Shown here: positions 12,710 to 44,989 of the stretch, piece by piece
Position numbering within the stretch: the stretch's first letter is position 1
Layout: each line of letters starts with the position of its first letter
Origin: an uncultured Pseudomonadales bacterium
GTDB taxonomy: Bacteria; Patescibacteriota; Microgenomatia; UBA1400; PJMF01
Length of the DNA stretch: 64,000 nucleotides
Direction of reading: 5' to 3'
Assembly: GCA_964645645.1 (NCBI GenBank)
Contig: CAZYBC010000004.1
Location: 5,148-69,147, forward strand
Made by a program: the position numbers and the translations under genes
The notes under the pieces: model-generated
What the model was told of the DNA's origin: nothing
Database searches by the model: none
Seen by the model: only the letters and a program-made list of their open reading frames with translations

Positions 12710-13948
12710 GTGCCAACTAAGAAAAAAACAAAAACTGCCCATTCTGTTTTGCTTAAAGTTTTAGGCTTTTTATTTTTGTTTTCTTTATTCACCCTAAGTT
12801 TTTTTACTGTTGTTTCAATCAATTCCACCAAAAAAAATTATTTATCAAAACATAACGACCTGTTATTAAGTTATCTAAAAAATCCACCTGATAATATTCT
12901 TTTACAAGGTATTACTGGTTCAGCTAGCCTCAATACTTATTACCAGCTTGATTTAACAACTGACAGCAATTTGGCTTATCAACAACTAAAAAATCCACAA
13001 TTAAAGCAAGAACCACCCCAACTAAAACCGCTTACTCCTCCTACTGATTTTTCAGACCGATCAACTTCTGAATTAGGCTTTAAACTTTTACAAGAGTTAC
13101 AAAAATTTGTTAACAACACTCCTTTTTTAAATCAAAATGATGAGCTACGTGATTTTGTTGCCCTCAATAAAAATCAACTCCCTAAAGTGGCAATTATTGG
13201 CCGGTTTCAAAATTGGGCTGATCCGCGCACTAACCGTTTTGACCAATACTTTGTTAATAGTGTTAAAAAAATGGGTGCTATTCCATATATTACTTGGGAA
13301 CCTTGGGCTGAAAAAGAACAAGCCGATCCCAGCAATCAACCAGATTTCCGTTTAGCAAACATTGTTGAAGGTAAATTTGATAAATACATTAAAGAATATG
13401 CCAAAGAAGCAGCTAAGTTTAACTATCCACTTTTTATCCGTTTTGCTCATGAAATGAATGGTCATTGGTATCCTTGGGGAGGGAAAGTTAATCAAAATAC
13501 TCCAGAAGATTACGTGGCTGCTTGGAGACATATTCATCAAATTTTTAAACAAGAAGGTGCTCATAATGTCATCTGGGTTTGGTCGCCTAATGAACCTTAT
13601 GGTGGGGCTTCTAACCAGAATTCAGACTTATTTAATCTTTATTATCCAGGTGATGATTATGTTGATTGGGTGGGTTTTTCTGCCTACAATTGGGGCAATT
13701 ATCGAGAATATGATACTCCACGCACTTTTAAAGAAATCACTGATGCTTCATACCAACTTTTATCACAGTACAACAAACCTCTCATGATCTCAGAAATTAA
13801 TAGTGCTAACATTAATGTGGATAAATTAGCTTGGATAAAAGAAATGAAAAAAACTATTTTGGATTATCCAAAAATAAAAGCAATTGTTTGGTATGAGAGT
13901 GAACAACAAATGCCTTTTAAAATTGAAGAACAACTTTTTTTTCAATAA
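12710..13948 (+). CDS. Secreted glycoside hydrolase family 26 (beta-mannanase-like), paralog of 11571-12674
   Basis: RFAHEMNGHWYPWGG, ITWEPW and YYPGDDYVDWVG are shared with the upstream paralog. Confidence 0.7.
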   Translation: MPTKKKTKTAHSVLLKVLGFLFLFSLFTLSFFTVVSINSTKKNYLSKHNDLLLSYLKNPPDNILLQGITGSASLNTYYQLDLTTDSNLAYQQLKNPQLKQEPPQLKPLTPPTDFSDRSTSELGFKLLQELQKFVNNTPFLNQNDELRDFVALNKNQLPKVAIIGRFQNWADPRTNRFDQYFVNSVKKMGAIPYITWEPWAEKEQADPSNQPDFRLANIVEGKFDKYIKEYAKEAAKFNYPLFIRFAHEMNGHWYPWGGKVNQNTPEDYVAAWRHIHQIFKQEGAHNVIWVWSPNEPYGGASNQNSDLFNLYYPGDDYVDWVGFSAYNWGNYREYDTPRTFKEITDASYQLLSQYNKPLMISEINSANINVDKLAWIKEMKKTILDYPKIKAIVWYESEQQMPFKIEEQLFFQ

Positions 13949-28625: not shown

Positions 28626-28728
28626 CTCCTTAGTTGCCGTAAGATTTGCTTTGCGCTAACGCATCGCCACAGCAACTAATAATTATTATATCAAGTAAAA
28701 GCTTAAAAGTAAATATTATAGGATATTG

Positions 28729-28805
28729 GGGTGGCTGACGAGACTTGAACTCGCGACCTCCGCTTTCACAGAGCGGCGCTCTAAACCAACTGAGCTACAA
28801 CCACC
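28729..28805 (-). tRNA. tRNA-His (anticodon GTG)
   Basis: Reverse complement GGTGGTTGTAGCTCAGTTGGTTTAGAGCGCCGCTCTGTGAAAGCGGAGGTCGCGAGTTCAAGTCTCGTCAGCCACCC. 8-bp acceptor stem with an encoded G-1, D-arm, CT-GTG-AA anticodon loop, TTCAAGT T-loop. Confidence 0.8.
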
Positions 28806-28881
28806 ATATAAATGTTAACTGATTAATTTCAGCTAACTTTATTTTTAAAAAAGTCTAAAAGATTTTTCTAAGACTTTTCTG

Positions 28882-28955
28882 TACGCCAAGTAGGACTCGA
28901 ACCTGCGACCTACTGCTTAGAAGGCAGTCGCTCTATCCAGCTGAGCTATTGGCGC
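28882..28955 (-). tRNA. tRNA-Arg (anticodon TCT)
   Basis: Reverse complement GCGCCAATAGCTCAGCTGGATAGAGCGACTGCCTTCTAAGCAGT...TTCGAGTCC...TTGGCGTA. Cloverleaf with a CT-TCT-AA anticodon loop. There is one T-stem mismatch and a G1:U72 pair. Confidence 0.7.
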
Positions 28956-29038: not shown

Positions 29039-29626
29039 TTACTGATTAGCTTCTCCTAGCACAAACCCTTTAGCCTGCCCAAATTGCAAAAAACCATTAA
29101 AATCTAATTTTGTATTACTAATTTTAGAATCAGCAAAATTAGTTCTAAGAATGCTAGCACCACTTAAATCTGCCTTAGCCAAAATGCAATTTTCAAAGCT
29201 GGCTCCATCTAATTTAGCCAAAGAAAAATTAGCTTCTGACAGATCACATTTCATAAAGATACTATTACTCAAATCGCTTTTAGAAAAATTAGTTTTTTGT
29301 AATTTAGCCATTACTTTTAAATTTTTATCTCCAGATTTTAGTTTGTAAAAAATAGCGTTTTCAATTAAACATTCTTCAAAACTGCATTCCTTAAAGTTAA
29401 CTTCGGAAAAATCTAAATAACTTAATTTTGATTCTACAAATTTGCAAAATTCAAAAGCACTCATATCAAAAACCACTTCACTAAAATCACAATTCTGAAA
29501 AACGCAGTGCTTAAAAAATGACAGTCTTAAATTGACCTTACTAAATTTACAGTCAATAAAATTATCTTTTTCAAAATTTTCTCCGCTGAGTTCTGAAATA
29601 TTAAATTGTTTATGACGATAAAACAT
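29039..29626 (-). CDS. Pentapeptide-repeat protein
   Basis: Tandem A(D/N)LSxA pentapeptides (ADLSGASILRTNFADSKISNTKLD). Confidence 0.75.
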   Translation of the reverse strand: MFYRHKQFNISELSGENFEKDNFIDCKFSKVNLRLSFFKHCVFQNCDFSEVVFDMSAFEFCKFVESKLSYLDFSEVNFKECSFEECLIENAIFYKLKSGDKNLKVMAKLQKTNFSKSDLSNSIFMKCDLSEANFSLAKLDGASFENCILAKADLSGASILRTNFADSKISNTKLDFNGFLQFGQAKGFVLGEANQ

Positions 29627-31882: not shown

Positions 31883-32083
31883 ATGTATAATTGGAACATA
31901 GACACTACTAAATTAAAGAAAAATCCTGATGAATACGCTAAATTTATTTTAGAACAAAGAATTAATTTTGGACTAAATGGTAAAAAACTTTCATTAAAAA
32001 ACCTTAAAAAATACTGGAACGAGTTAGATATTGATTTGGCAAAAAAAAATTATTTACAAAAAATTATATGGCCTCAATCTTAA
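31883..32083 (+). CDS. Small hypothetical protein overlapping the start of the downstream nucleotidyltransferase gene. It could be a cognate antitoxin.
   Basis: 66-aa ORF with a 16-nt overlap with 32068-32724. Confidence 0.3.
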   Translation: MYNWNIDTTKLKKNPDEYAKFILEQRINFGLNGKKLSLKNLKKYWNELDIDLAKKNYLQKIIWPQS

Positions 32084-32724
32084 CTAAACAACAAAAATTA
32101 GCTTTAAAACTTATTGCACAAACGCAACTTGCTTCATTTTTTTATTTTTCTGGTGGAACAGCTTTAGCACATTATTATTTACGACATCGCAAATCAGAAG
32201 ATTTAGATTTTTTTTGCGAAAATGAATTTGATCCACAACAAATTACGATCATTTTAAAAAGTATTCAAAATAAACTCAAGTTTAATGAATTTGATTTTCA
32301 AAATAGTTTTAACCGAAATTTATATTTTTTAAAATTTGATGATAATTATGTTTTAAAACTTGAATTTACTTATTATCCTTTTCAACAAATTGAAAAACCT
32401 TCAAAAAAAGATAATTTATTAATAGATAGTCCAATTGACATCGCTACTAACAAATTATTCACCATTGTCCAAAAACCCAGAGGTAGAGATTATTATGATT
32501 TGTATTATTTAATTGATAAATATGGCTACCAAATTGAAGATTTACGCATGAAAGCTAAGATTAAATTTGATTGGCATATTGATCCATTACAATTAGCTTC
32601 TAGGTTAAATGAAGTTGACCTAAAATTAGATGATCCAATTCTTTTAAAAAAAATCAATAAGAAAAAATTGATTAATTTTTTTCAAAATGAAGCCATAAAA
32701 TTAAGCAAAAAAATTTTAGATTGA
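32068..32724 (+). CDS. AbiEii/DUF1814-like nucleotidyltransferase (third copy)
   Basis: FSGGTALAHYYL...RKSEDLDFF matches the GGTAL...RxSxDLDF signature shared with 39125-39823 and 43443-44201. Confidence 0.55.
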   Translation: MASILTKQQKLALKLIAQTQLASFFYFSGGTALAHYYLRHRKSEDLDFFCENEFDPQQITIILKSIQNKLKFNEFDFQNSFNRNLYFLKFDDNYVLKLEFTYYPFQQIEKPSKKDNLLIDSPIDIATNKLFTIVQKPRGRDYYDLYYLIDKYGYQIEDLRMKAKIKFDWHIDPLQLASRLNEVDLKLDDPILLKKINKKKLINFFQNEAIKLSKKILD

Positions 32725-32900: not shown

Positions 32901-34922
32901 CTATTCATATCTCAACGCATTTAATGCTGAAATTTTGGTGGCTCTTTTAGCAGGATAATGACCAGTTAAAATTCCCACAATGGTTGATAAAAACATTACA
33001 GAAATAACAAAAGTAAAAGGAATTACTGAGACATCAACTAAACCAACTCCCTTTACCACAGCTACACTGGATAAAGCCAAACTCAATAATTTTCCTGCGC
33101 TATAACCAATCATCAATCCCAATAAGCCCCCATAAAAACCCATAATCATCGATTCGGTTAAAAATAATTCTTTTACTTCTGCAGATTTCATGCCCATTGC
33201 TTTCATCAAACCTACTTCACGGGTTCTCTCTAATAAAGACACCGTTAAAGTATTAAACATCCCCAAAGTAGCAACTGCTAAAGCCACCATCCCCACTATC
33301 CCTAAAACTAATCTAAAAGTAGCAAACAAATTATTAATCTGAGCAACTGTATCAACTACTGAAACTGTCCCATAACCCATTGATTCAATCGCCGATCTAA
33401 CATTAGCCAACTGATTTTTTTCTTTGACAATAATTTTAATTTGAGACATGCGATTAATGCCCAAAGACCTCAATTCCACAAAAGGAACATAAACTACAGG
33501 CGTATCTTCTTCTGGAGTAACTCCTACAATTTTGTAAGTGGTGGGGGCAGATTCAATTCTTTCTGTTTCTCCCTCAACCAAATTACCAATTGCCACAAAA
33601 GTTAAAGTGATTTCTTGACCGACAGCTTGATTTTCAGCTAAACCGATGACATTTAACACTGCTTTGTTAACTACTGCTTCTCGTAAAGAATTTTTATTGA
33701 GCTCTACAACCTTAATTTTGTTATTTATGGGCATATTAGCCGAACTACTAGCCAAATTAACAATTGGCAAAGTGCCATCAGCTTTAGTAACGCCTAACAC
33801 TTTGGCTGACTCATTGACTGTAATTGGAGAAAGCCAAGCCGTATAACCCTCTTTTATTAATTGTTTGCCAGCTTCATCTCTAAGAGGAATATATTGCCCA
33901 TCTTCACAATCTTGGTCAACCACGGCTAAAGCATTTACCTCGGTTTTTTCTGCCTCAGTTTTAACGCAAGTTTGATTTTTCCACAAAGTAAATTCTGCCT
34001 TAATCCAAAAAGCAGTGTTTGTTGGTAAACTATCTTCTGGACCAGCATAATCGGCATAATGATCACCTAAAACTTGACTGCCATTTTGAGTCTCAGCTAC
34101 TTTTTTAGTGTAACCTAATACCGAACTTTGAGTAGAGGATTCACTACGCACTCTCAGCCACTCACCCTCTTTAATACTAAAAGTTAAAAGCTCAGCGCTA
34201 TCACTAGCTTGCTGAGTTTGACCAGTAATATCAGTAGTAATAATCTTGCTTGATTTTGGTGAAGTAGAACTAACTAAATCATCACTCACAAAAATTTGGC
34301 CGTGAATGGGCTGAATAGCTGAGCTTTTTAAATAATCGGTGGTAACTCCATAAACTGCTAAATCTGAAACAGAATTTTGATAAGAAATTTTACCAACAAC
34401 ACTGATTAAGGGGAGTGTAGCCTTAATTTGTGGCATATCTTTTAAACTAGCCAGCAATGATTCATTTAAAGCAGTTTCTTCACTTAACCCAGGTAAAATT
34501 TCTGCTTGTTCAAGCTCTTCCAACCGAGCCACTCGTGAAGTAACTAAATTTTCTAAACCATAACCAACTGAGACTAAAAAAACAATAAAAGCAATACTAA
34601 TGGCCATCCCGCCAATCGTGACCATGGTTCTGGTTTTTTTAACCTGCATATTGCGGAATGACAATTCAATTAAATAAGATCGGCTTAAAGTTTTTTGCTG
34701 ATTTTTTTCTAAAAAATCCAAAGTTTTTTCATAAAATTTATCAAATTGACCGGCCAAAGAGAGAACAGGTTTTAACCAAAAATAATCTTTTTTAATAGCT
34801 AATAAAAGATTAAAAACAATCTTAAGAGAATATAAAACCACCATTAACATAAAGCTGGCAAGATTTTTAAATCTAAATAACAACATCTTTAACCAGTTGT
34901 TTATTTTTTTCCAAATGATCAT
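32901..34922 (-). CDS. ABC transporter permease, FtsX/MacB-like (paralog of 3444-5450)
   Basis: Same architecture and C-terminal FtsX TM block (LLERTREVGLMKAMGM) as 3444-5450. Confidence 0.8.
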   Translation of the reverse strand: MIIWKKINNWLKMLLFRFKNLASFMLMVVLYSLKIVFNLLLAIKKDYFWLKPVLSLAGQFDKFYEKTLDFLEKNQQKTLSRSYLIELSFRNMQVKKTRTMVTIGGMAISIAFIVFLVSVGYGLENLVTSRVARLEELEQAEILPGLSEETALNESLLASLKDMPQIKATLPLISVVGKISYQNSVSDLAVYGVTTDYLKSSAIQPIHGQIFVSDDLVSSTSPKSSKIITTDITGQTQQASDSAELLTFSIKEGEWLRVRSESSTQSSVLGYTKKVAETQNGSQVLGDHYADYAGPEDSLPTNTAFWIKAEFTLWKNQTCVKTEAEKTEVNALAVVDQDCEDGQYIPLRDEAGKQLIKEGYTAWLSPITVNESAKVLGVTKADGTLPIVNLASSSANMPINNKIKVVELNKNSLREAVVNKAVLNVIGLAENQAVGQEITLTFVAIGNLVEGETERIESAPTTYKIVGVTPEEDTPVVYVPFVELRSLGINRMSQIKIIVKEKNQLANVRSAIESMGYGTVSVVDTVAQINNLFATFRLVLGIVGMVALAVATLGMFNTLTVSLLERTREVGLMKAMGMKSAEVKELFLTESMIMGFYGGLLGLMIGYSAGKLLSLALSSVAVVKGVGLVDVSVIPFTFVISVMFLSTIVGILTGHYPAKRATKISALNALRYE

Positions 34923-35701
34923 TGCTGTAATTTTTCTCCTCGTTTTGTATTATGAATATTTTTTTTAAAATATTCACTGGGATTTGTAGCTTGAGAAATA
35001 ATTTTGCCATCAAACATTTCTAAACTCCGAGAAGCATAATCTAAATATTCCAAATCGTGAGTCACCATAATCACTGTTTTACCTTGCCGATGTAAATTAG
35101 CCAGCAATTTCATCAACTCTTGACCAGATTTAAAATCTAAATTACCAGTTGGCTCATCCGCAATGATTAAATCTGGATTAGTCACCATCGCTCTAGCTAA
35201 AGCCACGCGTTGTTGTTGTCCGCTAGATAACTCTGTAGGGATATAATCTTGCCAATCGGTCATGCCTACTAAATCTAAAACCGCCAAAGCCTTTACGGCA
35301 GCCTCTTTGGCTTTCATGCCGCTTAAACGCAATGGAAACATCACATTTTCTTTAACCGTTAAAGCTTTTACCCAGTTGGGCTGCTGATAAACCATGCCAA
35401 TGTAATATTTTCTTAAATCAGATAGGCCATCTTCATCAAGGCTATCATATAAAGATTGACCTTTAAATAAAACTTTGCCATGAGTAGGTTTTTCCAAGCC
35501 CAATAAAATATGCAATAAGGTAGATTTACCACAACCTGATGGCCCAAAAATTACTAAAAATTCGCCAGCTTTTACGACTAAATTAATATCCATTAAAATA
35601 GGCGTGGCTTGAGCTTTCACAAAAAAAGTTTTATCTATATTAATCGCTTCAAGCACAGGGCGATTAGATTTTGCTGGTAGAGTCTTATTCATTTCAATCA
35701 T
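34919..35701 (-). CDS. ABC transporter ATP-binding protein (paralog of 2704-3447, roughly 55 percent identical by eye)
   Basis: [37 protein letters not shown]. Confidence 0.9.
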
Positions 35702-35704
35702 TGA

Positions 35705-38700
35705 TTATTCCTTAATAATTCGCAAAAAACTAAACGCTGAACTTAAATTTTCCATCACTAAATCAAAAGCTGAGCGAGTGGCTTTGGGCGCAATCGTAGC
35801 CATATCAATACTGAGCGCTTCATTCCCAGCTGCGTCTTTAGAAATAGCTCTTAAGTGATAAACCTGGCTAGGCGTAAGACCAGAAATAATTACCGAGTGA
35901 TTAAGAGTTAAATTGCCATCTTCTTGAGTTTTTTGACCATAACTTGTCCCAGTGCCTTCTCCATATTCTACTTGGGTAGTAGCTGGCTCATCAGTCGTCC
36001 AAGAGACTACCAGTTGAGCTTTTACTTGACCAGCCGCAAAACCAACTGGCGGAATAGTGCCACCAATTACTTTCAACCCAATAATTTGTGATGGTCGAGT
36101 ATCAGTAGCCGTCGTAAACACAAAAGTATCAGAAGAAGCTTCATTGCCAGCTTTATCCAAGCCTTTTACTAGTAGATTATATTGTTGAGAAGGCAAAAAG
36201 CCAGAAATAGTCATCTCTCGATTACCAGCCAACAACTCCACATCAACTTGATCTTTAGCCAGACTGGGTTGACCAACTGGATAATAGCTAACAATTGCTG
36301 AAGTCGGCGTATTGACTGTCCAACTAACTAAAATGGTAGTTTGAGAAGTGCCGGCTACTTCTTGCAAACTCACATTCGTAATCCTTGGTCTAGGCATGGT
36401 AGTAAAAGTTAAAGCCTGACCTTCATACTCATAACCTTCGCTATCAAAAGTATTAATTTTGTAATAATAAGTAGTGCCATCTTCCAGACCAGATAACTCA
36501 GTGGTCACTATATTAGCCGTGGTAGAAGTAGCCACCTCTTTTAAACCACCAAAGGCCGTACTTTTACCATAATAAATTTTAACGCTACTTGCTCCACTAA
36601 CAGTATATTTAATGATGGCACTGCTTAGGCCAATTTGAGTAGCTTGAGGATCTGTGACTGAAGGCGCCGCTTGAGTGGTAAAACGCTTTTCACTACTTGT
36701 ACCAGTGTTACCGTCTTCATCAGTCCACTTCACTTTATAATAATAGACTGTACCTGGAGACAAATTAGTTAAATTAATAGTGTGGTCAGTCACTTGAGAA
36801 GCATTAGATGGTTCTTCGGTAAAATAACTTCCTGAACTAGTGCCAAAAGACACTTTAGAATCACTGTTTCTACTAGTTGTCCAAACAATTTTAGCTTTTC
36901 TGGTAGTCACCGAGCTTTCACTGGGGCCAGAAGTTAAACTAGCCGCCTCAGTATAAGTGCCTTTGGGAGTAAGAGTAACCGCATTGGTATAGGAAGGACT
37001 AGCCGTTGATTCGCTAGAAGTATCACTTGTGCCAATCCGCCAATAATACTGCCTTGATTCGCCAACAGTATCCACATAAGCTGTCCCGCTGGTGGTAGTA
37101 ACAGTAGTCCAAATAGAACCATCGGTTGACCTTTGCACTGTATAGGTTAAGGTACCAGTGCCTTGGTAAGTAGGATGATTCCAAGCTAAAGAAGCCCGCC
37201 ATAAAGAAGCAGATTTAATTGATGCATCAGCCACACTTAAATCTTTGGCTGGATCTGGCATAGTAGAGTTTAAAGTAAAAGTGCCAGCAATATAGTTACT
37301 AGGAGAATAGTTATCTCCGTCATCCACCGCCACTACTCGCACGGTATTGCTCCCTTTTTGCACGCCAGCTAATTCGCTAGCTGATAAACTGGTGCCAGTA
37401 ATAGGGATATAAGTGGCTGAATTAGAAGTTAAAGTGCTCAAAGTTGAAGGCGGAGTAGTATTAATCATGTAGTAATAACTAGCAATCGTTTGCCCATCCG
37501 CCGGCGTAGCCGCTGGCCAGGAAAGAGCAAAAGAATTGCTCGTGCTAGTGGTTGGCGTAATCGTCACCACTGCATCACCAGCAAAAACTGGAGCATCTCC
37601 TCCATAAGCCAAATTCCCAGTTCTATAAGTAGAAGGGGAAGAAACATTGCCAGCTAAATCAACCGTTCTAAAAGAAATAATATTATCACCAATCACTAAA
37701 TAATCACCATCACGAGCTTGAGTTAAATAAAGCGGTTGCTCATAAGCAGCGGGGATATAAGAAATGCCCAATAAAGCATGCGTGCTGGTGCCAAGCCAAT
37801 CACCACTATTATTAAGCATGTATTGCCACCCCAAAACTGCCGAGTGGACATCACTACTAGCTGCACTGCCACTGGTAGGCCAAGAAAAATTCATGTCCAC
37901 AATGTTATTAAATGTTCCAGAAGCAGGATTAATATAGGACACATTAGTCGGCGCAGTATTATCAAAAATAAAACTAAAAGTGGCCATACTGGTGTTATAA
38001 GTATTACCAGCATTATCAATGGCTTTAATATTCAAATGATAAGTGGTGCCATTCACAAAACTACTGGATAAATAATCACCAGCAGATAAATCTAAAACCT
38101 CACTAGCCACAATAAACATACAATCAGTGCCAAGCGTAGAAACTGGAGAATTGGTGAGCAGGCCCGCGGTACCAGATTGCGTTAAATGATTGCCAGGATC
38201 AGCACTAGCTGAAGTACCAAGATACAAACAATAACCTTTTAAGTCTGATCCACCCACATTATCAGCCCCAGCACTCCAGGTAAAATAAGGTTCAGTACTA
38301 TTAGAATAACCAGCCTCTGGAATAGTGTGGCCAGCCACGGCTGACTTCATCACAATGGCGGAGGCATTAGTGGCAGGCTCAGTAATATCAGTGCTGTAGT
38401 CAGCAATACTCACCCCAGGGCTAGTAAAATTTAACCAGCCCACATCTTCACTAAAAGCATAACCACTTAAAGTGCCAGTACTCAGGTTAATCGTTACCGC
38501 ACTATTGTAATTGCTGAAATCAATATAAGCGCCAGTTGCTACCACTAAGGCTTTACCAGCTAAAATCCCGGTATCTGGATCATAAGTGACTGGCCCTTGC
38601 GGATTATCAGTTTCACCAAAAGCCACCCAACCCACATCTTCACTAAACACATAGCCCTCAAAATTGTGGGCAATCATATTAATCCGGACATTAGAATTGT

Positions 38701-38872
38701 AATTATCAAAATCTAAAAAAACACTAGTGTTTGCTGCTACGGCCTTACCAGAGATAGCAAAGCTAGAAGCATAAACCAAAGGATGAAAACTTTTTAGCAC
38801 TAAAAGACCAGCCAGCACTAAACTAACTAACGGCAAAAACTTCTTGGCAGAGTTTAGCTTAAACTTTAACAC
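35705..38872 (-). CDS. Large secreted Fn3/Ig-like-repeat surface protein (1055 aa) with a signal peptide. Paralog of 1-2700.
   Basis: N-terminal signal peptide. The C-terminal 450 aa align with the 25-2700 protein (SWTTSRNSDSKVSFG, LSPGTVYYYKVKWTDEDGNTG). Confidence 0.75.
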   Translation of the reverse strand: MLKFKLNSAKKFLPLVSLVLAGLLVLKSFHPLVYASSFAISGKAVAANTSVFLDFDNYNSNVRINMIAHNFEGYVFSEDVGWVAFGETDNPQGPVTYDPDTGILAGKALVVATGAYIDFSNYNSAVTINLSTGTLSGYAFSEDVGWLNFTSPGVSIADYSTDITEPATNASAIVMKSAVAGHTIPEAGYSNSTEPYFTWSAGADNVGGSDLKGYCLYLGTSASADPGNHLTQSGTAGLLTNSPVSTLGTDCMFIVASEVLDLSAGDYLSSSFVNGTTYHLNIKAIDNAGNTYNTSMATFSFIFDNTAPTNVSYINPASGTFNNIVDMNFSWPTSGSAASSDVHSAVLGWQYMLNNSGDWLGTSTHALLGISYIPAAYEQPLYLTQARDGDYLVIGDNIISFRTVDLAGNVSSPSTYRTGNLAYGGDAPVFAGDAVVTITPTTSTSNSFALSWPAATPADGQTIASYYYMINTTPPSTLSTLTSNSATYIPITGTSLSASELAGVQKGSNTVRVVAVDDGDNYSPSNYIAGTFTLNSTMPDPAKDLSVADASIKSASLWRASLAWNHPTYQGTGTLTYTVQRSTDGSIWTTVTTTSGTAYVDTVGESRQYYWRIGTSDTSSESTASPSYTNAVTLTPKGTYTEAASLTSGPSESSVTTRKAKIVWTTSRNSDSKVSFGTSSGSYFTEEPSNASQVTDHTINLTNLSPGTVYYYKVKWTDEDGNTGTSSEKRFTTQAAPSVTDPQATQIGLSSAIIKYTVSGASSVKIYYGKSTAFGGLKEVATSTTANIVTTELSGLEDGTTYYYKINTFDSEGYEYEGQALTFTTMPRPRITNVSLQEVAGTSQTTILVSWTVNTPTSAIVSYYPVGQPSLAKDQVDVELLAGNREMTISGFLPSQQYNLLVKGLDKAGNEASSDTFVFTTATDTRPSQIIGLKVIGGTIPPVGFAAGQVKAQLVVSWTTDEPATTQVEYGEGTGTSYGQKTQEDGNLTLNHSVIISGLTPSQVYHLRAISKDAAGNEALSIDMATIAPKATRSAFDLVMENLSSAFSFLRIIKE

Positions 38873-39124
38873 TAAGATAAGAATAGCAAAAAAGAGGCTG
38901 TGATAGCAAGCTGAAAAACTGTTTTGTTTTATCTGGCAATAAAGTCTAAATAATTATCTTTATTTATTGTTTGAAAGTGTGAATTTGGATAATTATCTGT
39001 CCAAGCTTGTGGTAACTTTGCAGTATTTTTACTTAACTTAAATTCAAAACAAACTGAATTAGCGTTAATTCCGCTTGTCTATGATCCGAAATAGCGCCAA
39101 TTCCGCTTATGGAGCTATTTAAAA

Positions 39125-39823
39125 TTATTTTTCATTGCTTTCTTTTCGCAATTGCAATAAAGAAATAGTCTCTTCTCGCAACTTAGCTCTAGCCCAATCC
39201 TTCTGCCCTTCAGTCAATAATTCACCTGACCCATCCAAAATATTGCGGTTATTCATTTTTTCTAATTTTTTAATACATTTTTCTACTAACGTATCGAAAG
39301 GCATCTCTGCTCGCTGTTCTACAATTTTTTTATTAATTAAAAAACGATTTTTCAAAAAAAACCAAACATCATAAATGTCTCGGCTAGTTTTGCCCATCCG
39401 TTCATACATAGCCATTAATTTATGAGCAAACATATCCTCAGCAACCATCACCAGCATCGACATCCCAAGATAAGTTTTTATTTCATATTTTGAGCCAAAA
39501 TGTCTACGATTGATTTCTATCTTAATATTGTGAGCCTTATCTTGATATGAAAGTAAGCAAAATAAATTATGACGTTTTTTATATGAATCTTTAAGTTGCC
39601 CGTATTTTTTCACAATCTCTACCACTCGCTCAAAAACTAAAGCTTCTTTGTCATCATCCAATAAATCAAAATCAAGATCAACTGAAAATCGATCTAAGCC
39701 ATAAAACATTAACAAAGCTGTTCCGCCTTTAAATCCCAAAAAAGGTGAAATAGTGGTATCAGAATAAATATTTTTCAGAATTTGAAACAAAATAGTTTTA
39801 TGAATTACAATATCAAATGTCAT
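39125..39823 (-). CDS. abiEii: AbiEii-family nucleotidyltransferase toxin (type IV TA / abortive infection)
   Basis: FKGGTALLMFYGLDRFSVDLDF (GGTAL...RFSxDLDF). 4-nt overlap with the upstream abiEi. Confidence 0.7.
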   Translation of the reverse strand: MTFDIVIHKTILFQILKNIYSDTTISPFLGFKGGTALLMFYGLDRFSVDLDFDLLDDDKEALVFERVVEIVKKYGQLKDSYKKRHNLFCLLSYQDKAHNIKIEINRRHFGSKYEIKTYLGMSMLVMVAEDMFAHKLMAMYERMGKTSRDIYDVWFFLKNRFLINKKIVEQRAEMPFDTLVEKCIKKLEKMNNRNILDGSGELLTEGQKDWARAKLREETISLLQLRKESNEK

Positions 39824-40401
39824 AAATTAGATACCTTTTTAAATAAAGACTGCACTTTTTTTTCTAGACTTTTATTTTCATATAATGGTAATAATTGAAA
39901 TATTTTTTTCCAATCAAGCGCTCTTAAATTATCAAAATGATAATCAGTGCTATGATACAAAATGTCCAAAAATGATCTTTCTTTGGTGGCAATAGAAACA
40001 CCATTTGTTTGTTGAATTCCAATGGAATTAGCTAAGATAGCACTTTTTACTTTTCGATATGAATAAATTTGCCCATCAATAATAATTTTTCTACTTAAAT
40101 AAGACGCAACCGTAATCACTGTTTGATATTGGAAGATTAAACCTTCTTTTGCCAAAACAGTTTCAAAACTAACATAAGAGGGTAAAAATATTCTAGTGGC
40201 TAGTTCTAATTTGTTATAATTTTTGTCTTTGACGTAGATGCCTTTGCGCAATCGATAAAGCTGGCCTTTTTTAACATAATAATTTAAACGAACTCTAGCA
40301 GATGTTGTATCATCATCCTGCCACAATAAAGCCAAGTCTTTTAAAGTAAAGACTGTTTTATTTAATCTTAAAATAATATCTAAATAATTACCTTTTTGCA
40401 T
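39820..40401 (-). CDS. abiEi: AbiEi-family antitoxin / transcriptional regulator
   Basis: Size, position upstream of and overlapping abiEii, and an N-terminal wHTH-like segment. Confidence 0.6.
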   Translation of the reverse strand: MQKGNYLDIILRLNKTVFTLKDLALLWQDDDTTSARVRLNYYVKKGQLYRLRKGIYVKDKNYNKLELATRIFLPSYVSFETVLAKEGLIFQYQTVITVASYLSRKIIIDGQIYSYRKVKSAILANSIGIQQTNGVSIATKERSFLDILYHSTDYHFDNLRALDWKKIFQLLPLYENKSLEKKVQSLFKKVSNL

Positions 40402-40404
40402 ATT

Positions 40405-40443
40405 TTGAACTGTAAGTTAGGTTTAACCTAACCTACAGTTCAA
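40405..40443. promoter_or_regulatory. 39-bp near-perfect palindrome abutting the abiEi start codon (TTGAACTGTAAGTTAGGTT-t-AACCTAACCTACAGTTCAA). Candidate AbiEi autoregulatory operator or RBS-sequestering hairpin.
   Basis: 19-bp arms with one mismatch, read directly. Confidence 0.5.
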
Positions 40444-40719
40444 AATATATGCTTAATTAAAATCACTGTCAAGCAGCAGCTAGATAAAATAGATGCACTT
40501 GGAAAAAAATTTCTTTATGATAATTAAGCTCTAACATAAAGTGGCCAGATTTTTAAACAGCTATGCTATTTAGCTACAGCTATTAAAAGAGAAGTTTAAT
40601 AAATTAAAAGGCGATTTACTTACCTATTTTTTAGGTATAAATAACCCACTTTTTTTATCTAAAAACCAGCTAAAATACTTAGCTTTACGATAAGAAAGTC
40701 TACAAAGTAAATCTTTTTT

Positions 40720-40865
40720 AGCCAATTATTGGTCTGGCACGACTAACACCACTAATACTAATAACGCTTGGTACACTAATCTAAGCAATGGCAACACGAA
40801 CAACAATACCAAGACTACAGCTACATATTCATTTCGGTGTGTGTTTTAGTCTAAGGACTTTTAAA
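40720..40865 (+). other. DGR template repeat (TR)
   Basis: 146 bp matching the reverse complement of 42462-42607, with differences only at 13 TR adenines. Located immediately upstream of avd. Confidence 0.92.
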
Positions 40866-40872
40866 GAAAACT

Positions 40873-41229
40873 ATGTTTTATCAAAGCATGCCACTTTATC
40901 TAGAGCTGATTAACTTACTCAAGTTAGAATATAAGCTAAATAAAAATATTGCCAAACAATATCGTTATTCTTTGGGAGAAAAAATTATTGATTTAACCTG
41001 GCAAATGCTGGATTTATTTATTGAAGTTCAACATTTAAGCAACATTTCAAACTCTAATAAAACAGCTCTCATTAAAACAATGATTGCTGATCATGAAAAA
41101 TTGCAATTACGGCTCAGATTTTTAGGAGAATTGCAACTAATTTCTCTTAAACAACAAGCTCAATTGCTTGCTCATACAACGGCTATTGGCAAAATGCTGG
41201 GCAGCTGGCTAAAACATGTCCCAAAATAA
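40873..41229 (+). CDS. avd: DGR accessory variability determinant (Avd, four-helix-bundle family)
   Basis: 118 aa, helical, bAvd-like layout. Lies directly between the TR and the RT and overlaps the RT by 14 nt. Confidence 0.75.
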   Translation: MFYQSMPLYLELINLLKLEYKLNKNIAKQYRYSLGEKIIDLTWQMLDLFIEVQHLSNISNSNKTALIKTMIADHEKLQLRLRFLGELQLISLKQQAQLLAHTTAIGKMLGSWLKHVPK

Positions 41230-42400
41230 AACTAGCACAATTTTTACTTATCAAAAAATTCTTAAAGCTTATTTTTTCTGCCGAAAACATAAGCGTCAAG
41301 CTCTGAGTGCTTTGGCTTATGAACTAAACTTTGAGAAAAATCTTGGTCAATTGATAGAGCAGCTACAAAATAAAACCTATCAACCCCAAAGTGCGGTTTA
41401 TTTTATTGTTACCAAACCAAAACCTAGGGAAATTTTTGCCAGTGAATTTGGAGATAGAATTACCCATCATTTGCTTATTAACGAAGTAGAAAAAATCTGG
41501 GAAAAAGACATTTTCATCACTGATTCTTATGCTTGTAGAAAGGGCAAAGGCCACCATTTTGCCCTCCAAAGAGTGAAAAACTTAGCTAAAAAGTATCGAT
41601 ATTATGGCCAATTTGATATTAGTAATTTTTTCTCTAGTATTGATAAAAATATTTTATTTGAAATTTTTGCCAAAGTTATAAAAACACAAGCAAAACCAGA
41701 ATTCTGGAAAAATAATCTTTTATGGCTAACTAAAATAATTATTTTTTCTGATCCCACCCAAGATTTTTTTTATAAAGGCAATCAAAAATTAAAAAAATTA
41801 GTGCCAGCACAAAAGTCATTATTTAATCAAGAACCAGAAATTGGCTTGCCGATTGGCAATCTAAGTAGCCAATTTCTGGCTAATGTTTATCTTAATGAAC
41901 TAGATCAATTTGTAAACAAAAAGCTTAAAATAACCGCCTACGCTAGGTACGTTGATGACTTTTTAATCTTTAGTAATTCAAAAACTAAAGTTATTCAAGC
42001 CAGAAATCAAATTAAAGAATTTTTAAAAACTGAACTCAAATTAACCTTGCATCCTAAAAAACAGCAAATTCAAACTACTTGGCATGGCATTCCTTTTGTT
42101 GGCTACTTTATTAAGCCAGGTGGAGCGCAAGTTAGAAGAAATGTGGTAAAAACTCTTAAAAATAAATTGTTTTATGCCCAAAAACTCAAAAATTTACCCC
42201 AAATCATTACCTCTTTAAATTCTTATTATGGCCATTTTATTCATGCTAATTCATATCGCTTAAGAAAACACCTTTTTAAACAACATCTAAGTCAAGAATT
42301 TCATCAGTATCTGTGGGTAAAAGGTCATTACCAATCTTTTTGGCCAACTAAAAAGTTTTTTGCTAAAGGAAAAAATCTTTCCTTTAGCAAAAAAAAATAA
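41216..42400 (+). CDS. DGR reverse transcriptase
   Basis: RT motifs SYACRKGKGHHFAL (motif 2-like), LPIGNLSSQFLANVYLNELD (motif B') and YVDDFLIF (YxDD). 394 aa, typical for DGR RTs. Confidence 0.9.
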   Translation: MSQNKTSTIFTYQKILKAYFFCRKHKRQALSALAYELNFEKNLGQLIEQLQNKTYQPQSAVYFIVTKPKPREIFASEFGDRITHHLLINEVEKIWEKDIFITDSYACRKGKGHHFALQRVKNLAKKYRYYGQFDISNFFSSIDKNILFEIFAKVIKTQAKPEFWKNNLLWLTKIIIFSDPTQDFFYKGNQKLKKLVPAQKSLFNQEPEIGLPIGNLSSQFLANVYLNELDQFVNKKLKITAYARYVDDFLIFSNSKTKVIQARNQIKEFLKTELKLTLHPKKQQIQTTWHGIPFVGYFIKPGGAQVRRNVVKTLKNKLFYAQKLKNLPQIITSLNSYYGHFIHANSYRLRKHLFKQHLSQEFHQYLWVKGHYQSFWPTKKFFAKGKNLSFSKKK

Positions 42401-42411
42401 AAAAACTCAAA

Positions 42412-42463
42412 CCCGCCTTTGGCGGGAATAAAAACCTAAGTTTCAGATTCTGAAACTTAGGTT
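42412..42463. terminator. Two adjacent hairpins (CCCGCCtttGGCGGG and AACCTAAGTTTCAGAttcTGAAACTTAGGTT) between the convergent RT and target genes
   Basis: Perfect stems read directly. The second hairpin lies immediately 3' of the VR on the target sense strand. Confidence 0.6.
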
Positions 42464-42607
42464 TAAAAGGCCTTAGACTAAAACACACACCGAAATGAAT
42501 ATGTAGCTGTAGTCTTGGTAAGGTTGTACGTGACGCCACTGCTTAGATGAGTGTACCAAGCGTTATTAGTAACAGTGGTGGAAGTCGTGCCAGACCAATA
42601 AGTGGCT
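42462..42607 (-). other. DGR variable repeat (VR), covering the last 42 codons and the stop of the target gene
   Basis: See TR. VR codons T,S,V,H,S,V,Y,L correspond to TR AAT/AAC codons. Confidence 0.92.
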
Positions 42608-43371
42608 GCACTATTACTTAAAAACTCAGCTGAGCCATCTATATAGGCCATCATCAACTCTTTTTGATAAGGCAAGCGCCAACCAGTACCTAAAGCTTCA
42701 CAGCCGGTTTTACTACTAATTAGTTTTACACACTTACAAGCCACATCGCCATGAGCAACACAAGAGCCAGGATTCTCCGCTGAACCAGGCTGAGCACAAT
42801 TATTCGCCGTAAACCAATTCGCCGCACTACTAATTCTAGCCGACCAGACTAAGCCAGTGTTGGCATCCTGCTTTTCTGCTTGAGCATTACTAGTATTACA
42901 GTAAGTATTCGCTTCATTACAAGTGGTCCAGCTAGCCAGATAACTCCCAGTTGGTAAAGTAGTAGCATCATGAATCCCGCCCACACTCTGTGGATAATCT
43001 GCATTTCCGCCATTATATGTACCATTAGCCTTAGCATCATTAAAAGTTCCTCTGGCAGCCGCATTAATTCTATTCCAGTAAGCCCCCCAATCTCCCCAGG
43101 ACCCAGCGGCCGTACTACCATAATCTAAAGTTGTTAAAGCATCAGCGAGTTGTTTTAAACGAGAATCAGCCTCAGATTCTGGAGAAGAACCTGTCTGTTC
43201 GGCGCGAATAATTTTAATTTGCCGGTTAAGACTCAGCCCTACCAAAACTAAAAACCCCACGGACAAAACTAACTGCCACGAAAAAATTTTTTGGCTTCTT
43301 ACAAATAGCAAGCGGATTTTTTGAAAAAATTTCATACTAATAATATGACGGATTAGAGAATGAGGTGTCAA
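42478..43371 (-). CDS. DGR target protein: secreted or membrane-anchored DUF1566 / C-type-lectin-fold (FGE-like) protein with the VR at its C-terminus
   Basis: GWRLPYQKELMMAY (DUF1566 WRLPT.EL motif), N-terminal hydrophobic anchor, C-terminal ...YSFRCVF typical of DGR CLec-fold targets. Confidence 0.85.
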   Translation of the reverse strand: MTPHSLIRHIISMKFFQKIRLLFVRSQKIFSWQLVLSVGFLVLVGLSLNRQIKIIRAEQTGSSPESEADSRLKQLADALTTLDYGSTAAGSWGDWGAYWNRINAAARGTFNDAKANGTYNGGNADYPQSVGGIHDATTLPTGSYLASWTTCNEANTYCNTSNAQAEKQDANTGLVWSARISSAANWFTANNCAQPGSAENPGSCVAHGDVACKCVKLISSKTGCEALGTGWRLPYQKELMMAYIDGSAEFLSNSAATYWSGTTSTTVTNNAWYTHLSSGVTYNLTKTTATYSFRCVF

Positions 43372-43380
43372 GACTTAGTA

Positions 43381-43433
43381 AGTATAGCCTAATTAAACCA
43401 TTCCGCTTGCGGTGTGTTTAATAAGGCTATACT
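43381..43433. repeat. Single REP-like element with 11-bp flanking arms (agtatagcct...aaggctatact)
   Basis: Core aaaccattccgcttgcggtgtgttta is the reverse complement of aaacacaccgcaagcggaatggttt. Confidence 0.7.
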
Positions 43434-43442
43434 TACCAAGAT

Positions 43443-44201
43443 TTATACCGTTGTAATACTCTCAAATGGCAGGCTTTTGATAAGTTCCTCAATCTGACTG
43501 TCATCTACCTGCTTGGAATAGTAAATCTGGCCCATTTCCTGCTCTTTTTCAGTAGCAATTACCTTCCAGTTGGTTTGGATACTGGCTTTAGTAATTGGTC
43601 GGCGAATTTCCTTTTGCCGGACATATGAAATAATTTCATCCAAATCCAGCTGGTACTTTTCCAAAAGTAAGTAGATATCATAGAAATCTCGATAACGAGC
43701 CCGATCACTCATAGCTCGGATTTTCTCAGCACAGACTTCTCTGATATCCATAACAGACACTTTAAAATCTACACCCCAGACATTGTGATAAACCATCGTT
43801 TGAGGTGTAAGTAACACATTTTGCAAGAAGTCGATTTCTACCTTGAGCGAATTGGGCTGAATAAGTGGTCCCATATACTGAAGTTTTTCAAACTTAATTG
43901 TGGCATTAGAAAGATAGTCCTTTTTTATACTCAGATAATCAATATTATCAAAAATTTCCCTAATTTCTTCAAGTGACAACTGTGTTTTATTTGAAGAAAA
44001 ATCTAAATCCTCAGAAAAACGATATTGATCCAAATAACAGTGATGAAGGGCTGTGCCACCCTTAAAAATAAGATTTTTGCCAATTTTAGAAGCGGCAATA
44101 ATCTGCATTACCAGAGCTAAGAAATAATCCTTCTCAGCAATATGTAAAGGATAACGCAAACTTTTACGATTGATAATTTCAAGTTGTTGTCTAGTAAGCA
44201 T
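43443..44201 (-). CDS. abiEii: AbiEii-family nucleotidyltransferase toxin (second copy)
   Basis: IFKGGTALHHCYLDQYRFSEDLDF. Confidence 0.7.
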   Translation of the reverse strand: MLTRQQLEIINRKSLRYPLHIAEKDYFLALVMQIIAASKIGKNLIFKGGTALHHCYLDQYRFSEDLDFSSNKTQLSLEEIREIFDNIDYLSIKKDYLSNATIKFEKLQYMGPLIQPNSLKVEIDFLQNVLLTPQTMVYHNVWGVDFKVSVMDIREVCAEKIRAMSDRARYRDFYDIYLLLEKYQLDLDEIISYVRQKEIRRPITKASIQTNWKVIATEKEQEMGQIYYSKQVDDSQIEELIKSLPFESITTV

Positions 44202-44206
44202 AGGGT

Positions 44207-44989
44207 TTATTTAACTGACTGATATTTATCAAAATAAGCATCATAATATAATCGCCATTTGGCATTAAACTTAGTATCTCCAAAAATCATCAGGTGAGTA
44301 CCTTTTAACTTAACTTGATTATAAAGATCACTAGAATCAATTCCTAAAAGATCAAATAAGAAACCAAATATCTTAATGGTAACTAAAGACATCTTACCTA
44401 AATACTCAATCATTCTTTGTATATCAAGTGAACTTTTATACAATGAGAGCTTTTCCACAACCAAATCAACAGTATATTTGCTTTTATGGAATTGAATCAT
44501 ATCAATTAAGGCTTTTTCAGCCGTGGCCATACGCACTGTCTTATTATCTATAATTACCTCTTCCCAACCAAAAAACCATTTATCCAATACTTTTACAAAG
44601 CTATACTCGGCTGACTGCAATTGCACCGTCTTATACTGCACCTGAGAGATTGAAATAGTTTTGTTGGTTAGTTGGTCAAACATGCCATGATAAGCTAAAG
44701 CTGACTCAAAAGAGATGTAAGAATCTTTAACTAAAAGATTGGCAACGACATAGGGCGAGAGAGATAAAAATCCACGGTTGCTCAGGTCAGAGATGGCATA
44801 CAAACCTTTTTTTACCCGAATCAGCCAGCCGTTGTGGGTTAATTTAACAATTACCTTTTTTGTCCTCTGCTGGTTCCACAATCCCTCAGCCTGGCTATAA
44901 ATCTGCTCAGAAGTCACAATTTGGCCATGTTTGACGATCAGATTCTCTAGAAGCATGCTTTGATTGGTGTTTAGAATAGTTTGTTTCAT
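44207..44989 (-). CDS. abiEi: AbiEi-family antitoxin (second copy)
   Basis: 260 aa, upstream of abiEii. Two-domain layout resembling 39820-40401 over the N-terminal domain. Confidence 0.6.
   Translation of the reverse strand: MKQTILNTNQSMLLENLIVKHGQIVTSEQIYSQAEGLWNQQRTKKVIVKLTHNGWLIRVKKGLYAISDLSNRGFLSLSPYVVANLLVKDSYISFESALAYHGMFDQLTNKTISISQVQYKTVQLQSAEYSFVKVLDKWFFGWEEVIIDNKTVRMATAEKALIDMIQFHKSKYTVDLVVEKLSLYKSSLDIQRMIEYLGKMSLVTIKIFGFLFDLLGIDSSDLYNQVKLKGTHLMIFGDTKFNAKWRLYYDAYFDKYQSVK

Follow-up and report, generated by a model that had tools for sequence, protein, structure and literature searches.

The closest described relatives of the genes discussed here are the AbiE toxin-antitoxin (TA) systems of S. 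agalactiae and L. lactis, for which the nucleotidyltransferase (NTase) motifs and the defining features of the family were laid out with S. agalactiae AbiE (Dy et al., 2014; PMC3985639). The S. agalactiae antitoxin, AbiEi, binds the 23-bp inverted repeats IR1 and IR2, with an N3 spacer, at its own promoter (PMC3985639). AbiE has since been reclassified as a type VII system, with antitoxin-induced autophosphorylation of the toxin at T65 and pyrimidine addition to tRNA, and the S. agalactiae system failed to protect against any of 32 E. coli phages tried (bioRxiv 10.64898/2026.01.19.700257). The MenAT systems of M. tuberculosis (MenT1, MenT3 and MenT4; PMC7450476, PMC10435456, PMC11375011) likewise have toxins of the DUF1814 family, paired with AbiEi-like or small unrelated antitoxins. 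Here, we describe a 64-kb stretch of DNA (the window; all coordinates are window positions unless a locus with an L number is given) in which three DUF1814 modules of these kinds lie at or near a diversity-generating retroelement (DGR) resembling the cellular DGRs of Patescibacteria and the candidate phyla radiation (CPR; clade 2, Roux et al., 2021, PMC8144416). The relatives of its reverse transcriptase (RT) carry Microgenomates or other CPR names, and the host looks like a small-genome, Microgenomates-type member of the Patescibacteria.

All of the 13 open reading frames (ORFs) between uvrB and uvrA can be accounted for, and among them an intact DGR is bracketed by two AbiEi/AbiEii pairs, with a third AbiEii toxin gene 9 kb away and all three DUF1814 modules inside 13.5 kb. 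The ORF map reproduces exactly the coordinates of an earlier sequence-only reading of this DNA, and both ORFs and profile matches bear out its AbiEi/AbiEii operons at 39125-40401 and 43443-44989, on the minus strand on either side of a complete DGR. The third AbiEii-like gene that it placed after uvrB is also there (PF08843, E=1.9e-19, at 32068-32724) and is no orphan, having an overlapping partner gene of 66 codons (small66). Furthermore, the two pairs have indeed diverged too far for a recent duplication, their toxins being 26-29% and their antitoxins 24% identical. What is not supported is the proposal that DGR and AbiE modules travel together as a stabilised "defence-plus-diversification island". 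Instead, it is likely that three DUF1814 TA modules settled independently at the junctions of a conserved chromosomal surface-variation locus, and that the bracket is not a co-inherited unit.

This reading draws first on synteny. In total, 160 DGR-RT loci were fetched with flanks of up to 10 kb and their ORFs were scanned with iterated AbiEii and AbiEi hidden Markov models (HMMs); when 86 near-RT ORFs were compared with Pfam, exactly the same five PF08843 genes came out, and thus the HMM scan does not miss divergent members. In L001, L002 and L083, whose RTs are 61, 56 and 60% identical to that of the window, the same block is found as in the window, consisting of an FtsX/MacB permease, an ABC ATPase, a surface protein of about 1060 aa rich in FN3 domains, and the template repeat (TR), avd and RT. 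The Lcl_C target is also kept in L001 and L002 (orthologs 51-58% identical), while the L083 contig stops about 440 nt past the RT. No AbiEi/AbiEii pair lies between surface protein and TR in any of these three loci, or after the target in L001 and L002, and in L083 the DGR non-coding region begins right after the surface-protein gene. The DGR block is therefore kept without the pairs at these positions, which argues against co-migration. The window segments 38873-39124 and 40449-40540, beside pair 1, do not align with the intergenic regions of the relatives and leave its insertion boundaries imprecise. The conserved block beside the DGR occupies 32901-38872 on the minus strand of the window, 3134-9220 in L001, 147-6243 in L002 and 1-1761 in L083, and the TR and variable repeat (VR) of L001 (9483-9644 with 13772-13933) and L002 (6400-6530 with 10000-10130) could both be located.

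A second line of evidence is divergence. The permease, ATPase and surface protein (about 1055 aa and FN3/Ig-rich in the window) are 45-70% identical across loci, which suggests that they form a functional surface or secretion unit with the DGR target. In contrast, the lone AbiEii genes are only 23-38% identical, and those in the DGR loci of the relatives belong to other subfamilies and occupy other positions than the window's. Their nearest relatives are non-syntenic: 84% identity joins AbiEii-1 to a gene in L081, 69% joins AbiEii-3 to one in L163, where there is no DGR, and 53% joins the AbiEii of L002 to that of L093. Since the AbiEii genes are far more diverged than the core and have their nearest relatives outside syntenic positions, they are best taken as independent acquisitions.

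The settings of homologous modules point in the same direction. Five contexts retrieved for AbiE-1 homologs (75-84% identical) comprise a position between recG and nusB, a further JGI copy of that setting, a neighbourhood of MFS, Fic and SLFN-helicase genes, a ribosomal cluster in which the module lies between a tRNA-synthetase gene and rplJ, and a site beside a BstXI-type restriction-modification system and a HerA-like ATPase; none of the five has an RT (RVT_1) within 10 kb. The module in the ribosomal-protein cluster sits beside PIN/MazE pairs, and in L171 several TA pairs are scattered among ribosomal-protein genes. Likewise, no RT was found within 10 kb of the small66/AbiEii-3 homologs in L163-L167. 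The idea of a stabilised island is thus not supported, as the AbiE-1 relatives retrieved sit away from DGRs and the AbiE modules vary independently of the core that is kept in L001 and L002, a pattern unlike that of a mobile genomic or defence island. Moreover, no integrase, transposase, recombinase or other mobility gene occurs among the 13 ORFs between uvrB and uvrA. Genes for tRNA-His and tRNA-Arg (28727-28955, minus strand) and a pentapeptide-repeat protein (29039-29626, minus strand) lie just upstream of uvrB; they adjoin no TA module and have no integrase nearby. Against a window mean of 0.354, small66/AbiEii-3 (GC content 0.23-0.24) and abiEi-1 (0.28) are AT-rich.

Several observations weigh against an explanation by independent insertion. 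Within the 70 loci closest by RT, AbiEii genes are about fourfold denser at less than 1.5 kb from the RT than beyond (p=0.045; 160 loci, p=0.055), PF08843 ranks first among the non-DGR families encoded less than 2 kb from the RT (5/70 loci), and three modules in 13.5 kb is high relative to the measured background. The cassettes of L001 and L002 contain TA-type genes, which hint at more than neutral insertion: between RT and VR, L001 (11455-13666) carries a DUF6922+AbiEii module and a 401-aa Fic/DOC protein, and L002 (8052-10134) two DUF6922 ORFs and an AbiEii gene that shares 4 nt, at its stop, with the start of the target gene. In addition, the homolog contexts cover only the AbiE-1 and small66/AbiEii-3 modules, and the AbiEi membership of the two antitoxins rests on PADLOC profiles, with Pfam and NCBIfam scores below curated cutoffs and an empty Protein Data Bank (PDB) search.

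The density near the RT and the frequency of PF08843 there speak for a selected association, in which AbiEii-family modules would be preferentially retained at Microgenomates DGR loci, either because addiction stabilises a costly, dispensable locus against deletion or because they cluster with surface-diversification genes in the manner of a defence island. This is a weakened form of the sequence-only reading, with recurrent recruitment in place of co-migration, and we regard it as unlikely. AbiEii density (per 100 kb, binomial p) was 1.25 near the RT and 0.35 beyond it across all 160 loci (9 AbiEii-positive), 2.99 and 0.77 for RTs at least 42% identical to that of the window (n=70, 9 positive), 12.52 and 2.68 for those at 48% or more (n=9, 5 positive; p=0.096), and zero in both zones below 42% (n=90, none positive, no p value). 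Independent modules of different subfamilies occur at the DGR loci of the window, L001, L002, L085, L032 and L030, TA-type genes lie inside the cassettes of L001 and L002, and a decayed abiEi remnant in the window (see below) shows repeated occupancy of one junction. However, the p values are marginal (0.04-0.10) and come from few events, nine positive loci that are partly non-independent, while 151 of the 160 DGR loci have no AbiEii in flanks of up to 10 kb and the more distant RT clade has none in 90. The closest clade carries about 2.7 AbiEii genes per 100 kb even at more than 1.5 kb from the RT, so its genomes are simply rich in such modules, and the AbiE-1 and small66 modules lie mostly away from DGRs. 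Searches of the available literature on a DGR-AbiE link, DUF6922 and TA genes in CPR DGR loci returned nothing specific. There is, then, a weak tendency of AbiEii genes to lie near DGR RTs in the Microgenomates-type clade, and some selective or insertional bias is possible. In its boldest form, AbiEii modules with at least three partner types (AbiEi, DUF6922 and the 66-aa protein) would be recruited, repeatedly and independently, to DGR loci of Microgenomates-type Patescibacteria to stabilise, drive or regulate them, which is quite improbable; if true, cellular DGRs in streamlined genomes would have TA modules as a selected accessory layer that had so far gone unrecognised.

Table 1. Features of the TA modules and the DGR in the window.
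Feature	Position	Strand	Description
small66	31883-32083	+	66-aa gene; starts 12 nt past uvrB stop; overlaps AbiEii-3 by 16 nt
AbiEii-3	32068-32724	+	DUF1814 NTase toxin, 218 aa; PF08843 E=1.9e-19; PADLOC AbiEii E=4.5e-14; GC 0.242; motifs FSGGT27, RKSEDLD41, K..R, RDYYD140
Decayed abiEi 5' remnant	38908-38975	-	Operator-arm end and ~18-20 codons, in-frame stop
abiEii-1	39125-39823	-	DUF1814 NTase toxin, 232 aa; PF08843 E=2.6e-20; PADLOC AbiEii E=1.4e-80; motifs FKGGT31, RFSVDLD45, RDIYD148
abiEi-1	39820-40401	-	Putative autorepressor antitoxin, 193 aa; PADLOC AbiEi E=9.4e-65, profile positions 3-185/186
49-bp palindrome	40400-40448		24-nt arms, 1-nt centre, 23/24 complementary; ends at abiEi-1 ATG
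Sigma-70-like promoter of abiE-1 operon	40444-40472	-	TTGACA-17-TATATT, 11/12 matches; best site in 6.7-kb region
Structured element	40543-40724	+	Immediately 5' of TR; belongs to DGR, not AbiE
TR	40720-40865	+	146 nt, 91% identical to VR
avd	40873-41229	+	118 aa; PF22296 bAvd E=2.5e-13; NCBIfam DivGenRetAVD E=6.8e-13, below cutoff
RT	41216-42400	+	394 aa; PF00078 E=5.9e-19; IGNLSSQ213, YVDD245; overlaps avd by 14 nt
GC-rich hairpin CCCGCC…GGCGGG	42412-42426		Between convergent RT and target genes; terminator-like
Perfect 13-1-13 hairpin	42435-42461		Directly 3' of VR, abuts VR end
VR	42462-42607	-	At 3' end of target gene
Target	42478-43371	-	N-terminal hydrophobic anchor; C-terminal Lcl_C (PF07603 E=8.7e-11, residues 168-296) with VR
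Inverted repeat	43374-43440		25-nt arms, 92% complementary; fills 71-nt spacer from abiEii-2 stop to target gene
abiEii-2	43443-44201	-	DUF1814 NTase toxin, 252 aa; PF08843 E=9e-32; PADLOC AbiEii E=3.9e-40; motifs FKGGT46, RFSEDLD61, RDFYD171
abiEi-2	44207-44989	-	Antitoxin, 260 aa; PADLOC AbiEi E=5.9e-36, full length

By their sequences, the three toxin genes are bona fide DUF1814 (AbiEii/MenT-family) members. They score 73.8 (AbiEii-1), 111.3 (AbiEii-2) and 71.0 bits (AbiEii-3) with PF08843, well above its gathering score of 22.5, and all three keep the four motifs of the polymerase-beta NTase fold, namely FKGGT or FSGGT (motif I), a motif II with the family-specific arginine (RFSVDLD, RFSEDLD and RKSEDLD, respectively), K..R (motif III) and RDxYD (motif IV). 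As in the AbiE toxins of S. agalactiae and L. lactis, the motifs are accompanied by a spacing of 15-16 residues from the glycine of motif I to the aspartate, typical of DUF1814, and by an R-x-[ST]-x-D-h-D core. With this core aligned to R63, T65, D67 and D69, each toxin has a serine at the position equivalent to the T65 phospho-acceptor. Identity to characterised AbiE is very low, and in the PDB the toxins give matches at E≈1e-6: AbiEii-1 to 4o8s and 4ok0, and AbiEii-2 to 9hlo_B (AbiGII) and to 6y56 (MenT4, E=2e-6), the latter a further likeness to MenAT. The modules are probably functional and would work as published for AbiE and MenAT.

Both antitoxins match the PADLOC AbiEi profile, so that neither pair consists of an NTase without an AbiEi partner, the outcome by which the sequence-only reading would have been refuted. 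With Pfam AbiEi_4, a profile that it had proposed to search with, both stay below the gathering score of 25: 23.1 bits at residues 10-57 of AbiEi-1 and 22.8 bits at residues 13-66 of AbiEi-2. Of the two-domain AbiEi architecture, a winged helix-turn-helix at the N-terminus and a C-terminal antitoxicity domain, these matches cover the N-terminal part. NCBIfam TAA_AbiEi gives E=1.5e-9 and E=1e-9, respectively, at about 38 bits where the cutoff is 150, and searches of the PDB with single sequences and a six-sequence profile found nothing meaningful for either protein. An AbiEi-profile antitoxin with an AbiEi_4-like N-terminal region would be shared with the AbiE systems of S. agalactiae and L. 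lactis. In pair 1 the antitoxin gene comes first and overlaps the toxin gene by 4 nt (ATGA), the bicistronic layout of those AbiE operons. An overlap of this kind had been claimed for both pairs; pair 2 has the same gene order and strand and is still operon-compatible, but a 5-nt spacer (44202-44206) stands between its antitoxin and toxin genes.

The promoter of pair 1 is near consensus, and its -10 hexamer abuts or overlaps the 49-bp palindrome, whose 24-nt arms and N1 centre compare with 23-nt arms and N3 in S. agalactiae. The palindrome is a candidate AbiEi-1 operator, through which the module may be subject to negative autoregulation. The same layout, a TTGACA promoter with a long palindrome ending at the abiEi ATG, is found with a different sequence in L032, and L081 keeps the outer half-sites of the palindrome upstream of abiEi. 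Hundreds of Patescibacteria homologs of AbiEii-1 are 72-87% identical to it, the best 120 (P0121-P0240) all at 72% or more. Such conservation of the AbiE-1 module is unusual for a toxin, and in different genomes (L081, L168, L171, L174) the module is placed between housekeeping genes. This suggests a mobile unit of two genes that either has been spreading recently among Patescibacteria or is under strong constraint there.

Pair 1 is also flanked by a direct repeat of 62 nt (38914-38975 and 40348-40409, 77% identical). The copy just downstream of abiEii-1, between this gene and the surface-protein gene, is a decayed 5' end of abiEi, with 65% identity over 20 aa by tblastn, and the repeat reaches 50 bits, whereas 300 shuffles gave at most 28.3. 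As the decayed copy exceeds chance by far, an earlier AbiE module is suggested to have occupied the same junction. The 62-nt repeat is absent from six other AbiE-1-type loci; for this reason it is read as a local relic, and its interpretation as the att-like end of a mobile AbiE cassette was rejected.

In pair 2, no convincing operator or strong promoter was found, the best repeat being a weak 9/11 match, and this, together with the spacer and the Patescibacteria-type host, sets it apart from AbiE of S. agalactiae and L. lactis. The inverted repeat at 43374-43440 is likely to act as a terminator of abiE-2 or as a barrier to its transcription. This repeat has a TTGACA-18-CATATT site just downstream (43371-43342, minus strand), and the two elements may insulate expression of the target from the abiE-2 operon or else couple both. 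The AbiEii-2 subfamily is rarer, with 24 representative clusters at E<=1e-30, and no AbiEii-2 relatives were found in viral contigs.

The partner of AbiEii-3 belongs to none of the families considered so far. Its GC content is 0.229, and it has 58 homologs in Patescibacteria, of 62-68 aa and 45-79% identical, with the consensus MYNWN.DT..LKKNP…LEQ.INFGLNG.KL…LKKYW..L.IDP and no matching Pfam family. In every context retrieved (L163-L167), the small66 homolog is followed by an overlapping PF08843 gene of 219-222 aa. Because it always precedes an overlapping AbiEii-like gene, the family is a candidate antitoxin family of DUF1814 toxins, and small66 is a real gene encoding a novel, unannotated candidate antitoxin of AbiEii-3. 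The arrangement parallels that of the small antitoxin MenA1. As a difference from MenAT, no similarity of the 66-aa protein to a solved antitoxin could be detected in either sequence or fold; AF2 predicts four helices (pLDDT 83), and the model matched no PDB fold. In size, position and overlap, small66/AbiEii-3 also resembles the DUF6922+AbiEii modules (PF21956 with PF08843) of L001, L002, L093, L146 and L030, in which a 55-75-aa protein directly precedes an AbiEii protein of 203-245 aa. Membership of DUF6922 is, however, unproven, as neither the 66-aa protein nor 26 of its family members matched PF21956 at E<=1 and hhalign gave a probability of 0.7%; like the 66-aa protein, its 58 homologs do not match PF21956.

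Taken together, these features make it very unlikely that the modules are decaying relics, that is, inactive toxins or orphaned antitoxins kept as regulators. One clear relic does exist at 38908-38975, and pair 2 lacks a convincing operator or strong promoter. Yet all five of the long ORFs are intact, as is that of 66 aa, catalytic motifs and phospho-acceptor serine are complete in all three toxins, pair 1 has a near-consensus promoter with a near-perfect palindrome, and the AbiEii-1 and small66 families are strongly conserved.

The DGR into whose surroundings these modules have probably moved has all the expected parts: an RT with DGR-type motifs, Avd, an adenine-specific TR/VR pair, and a target of C-type-lectin fold that carries the VR at its C-terminus. 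All 13 mismatches between TR and VR fall at TR adenines, and 12 of the 13 lie at codon positions 1-2 of AAY codons. In the window, the TR has no second VR, for example in the large surface protein. The true start of the target gene is probably the ATG near 43335. The hairpin at 42435-42461 is presumably the DGR-type hairpin at the VR end, with a role like that in BPP-1-type DGRs. Compared by features with the cellular CPR DGRs and with BPP-1, the element shares Avd, an RT with the I/LGxxxSQ motif, the A-specific TR/VR, and the lectin-fold target whose C-terminal VR is followed 3' by a hairpin. It differs in that the TR lies upstream of avd, after a clade-specific structured element, and in that the target is convergent with the RT.

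The structured element 5' of the TR is a candidate structured RNA. It is found in every locus whose RT is at least about 53% identical to that of the window, with copies in L001 (9363-9490), L002 (6279-6406), L083 (1947-2089 and 2654-2777), L084 (9375-9501), L003 (1739-1865, minus strand) and L085 (1013-1137). Conserved features are GGCCrGAGTT, a hairpin, AAAGGCGATTC and a long-range helix around a variable GC hairpin, and the window copy carries an insertion of about 50 nt. Compensatory changes are seen in 13 of 25 predicted pairs, and covariance model R1 finds the element in two loci outside its training set, in L003 (E≈5e-11), where it lies upstream of avd on its strand, and in L085 (E≈3e-10), where the TR follows directly. 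No Rfam family matched. The element is the left edge of the conserved DGR cassette, and pair 1 therefore lies outside it.

A mechanistic coupling, in which AbiEii NTases would act on DGR nucleic acids (for example by tailing TR RNA or cDNA) or regulate retrohoming, is highly unlikely: NTases of this family act on RNA 3' ends (bioRxiv 10.64898/2026.01.19.700257) and both L001 and L002 have AbiEii-like genes between RT and VR, in L002 with translational coupling to the target, but most DGRs of the same clade have no AbiEii at all, the modules bring dedicated antitoxin-type partners and their own putatively autoregulated promoter, the same modules are overwhelmingly found without DGRs, and those AbiEii genes that do occur beside related DGRs are not orthologs of one another.

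Under the favoured explanation by independent colonisation, three modules would have entered junctions of the surface-variation locus one by one, two of them bringing an AbiEi-type antitoxin and the third a novel partner of 66 aa. Their vicinity to the DGR would reflect separate insertions of promiscuous TA modules at permissive intergenic sites of a non-essential locus in module-rich genomes. Once in place, each antitoxin would repress its own promoter, in pair 1 by way of the 49-bp palindrome, which runs from the -10 hexamer to the ATG, and would bind its toxin and inactivate it by inducing autophosphorylation of the serine in R-x-S-x-D-h-D. Should the supply of antitoxin fail, through phage infection or loss of the locus, the NTase would add nucleotides to tRNA 3' ends, thereby blocking aminoacylation and arresting growth. 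Any role of the AbiE modules in defence or addiction is likewise putative.

To summarize, the locus adds well-preserved Patescibacteria modules of AbiE/MenT type to the known family, and the striking arrangement of a DGR between TA pairs is best explained by independent insertions. The unit conserved with the DGR is the ABC transporter and the large surface protein, not the TA modules. Moreover, the locus brings to light a 66-aa candidate antitoxin family for DUF1814 toxins that is in no database annotation. Should the weak tendency of AbiEii genes to lie near CPR DGRs be borne out at scale, it would have implications for the retention of costly accessory loci by tiny genomes.

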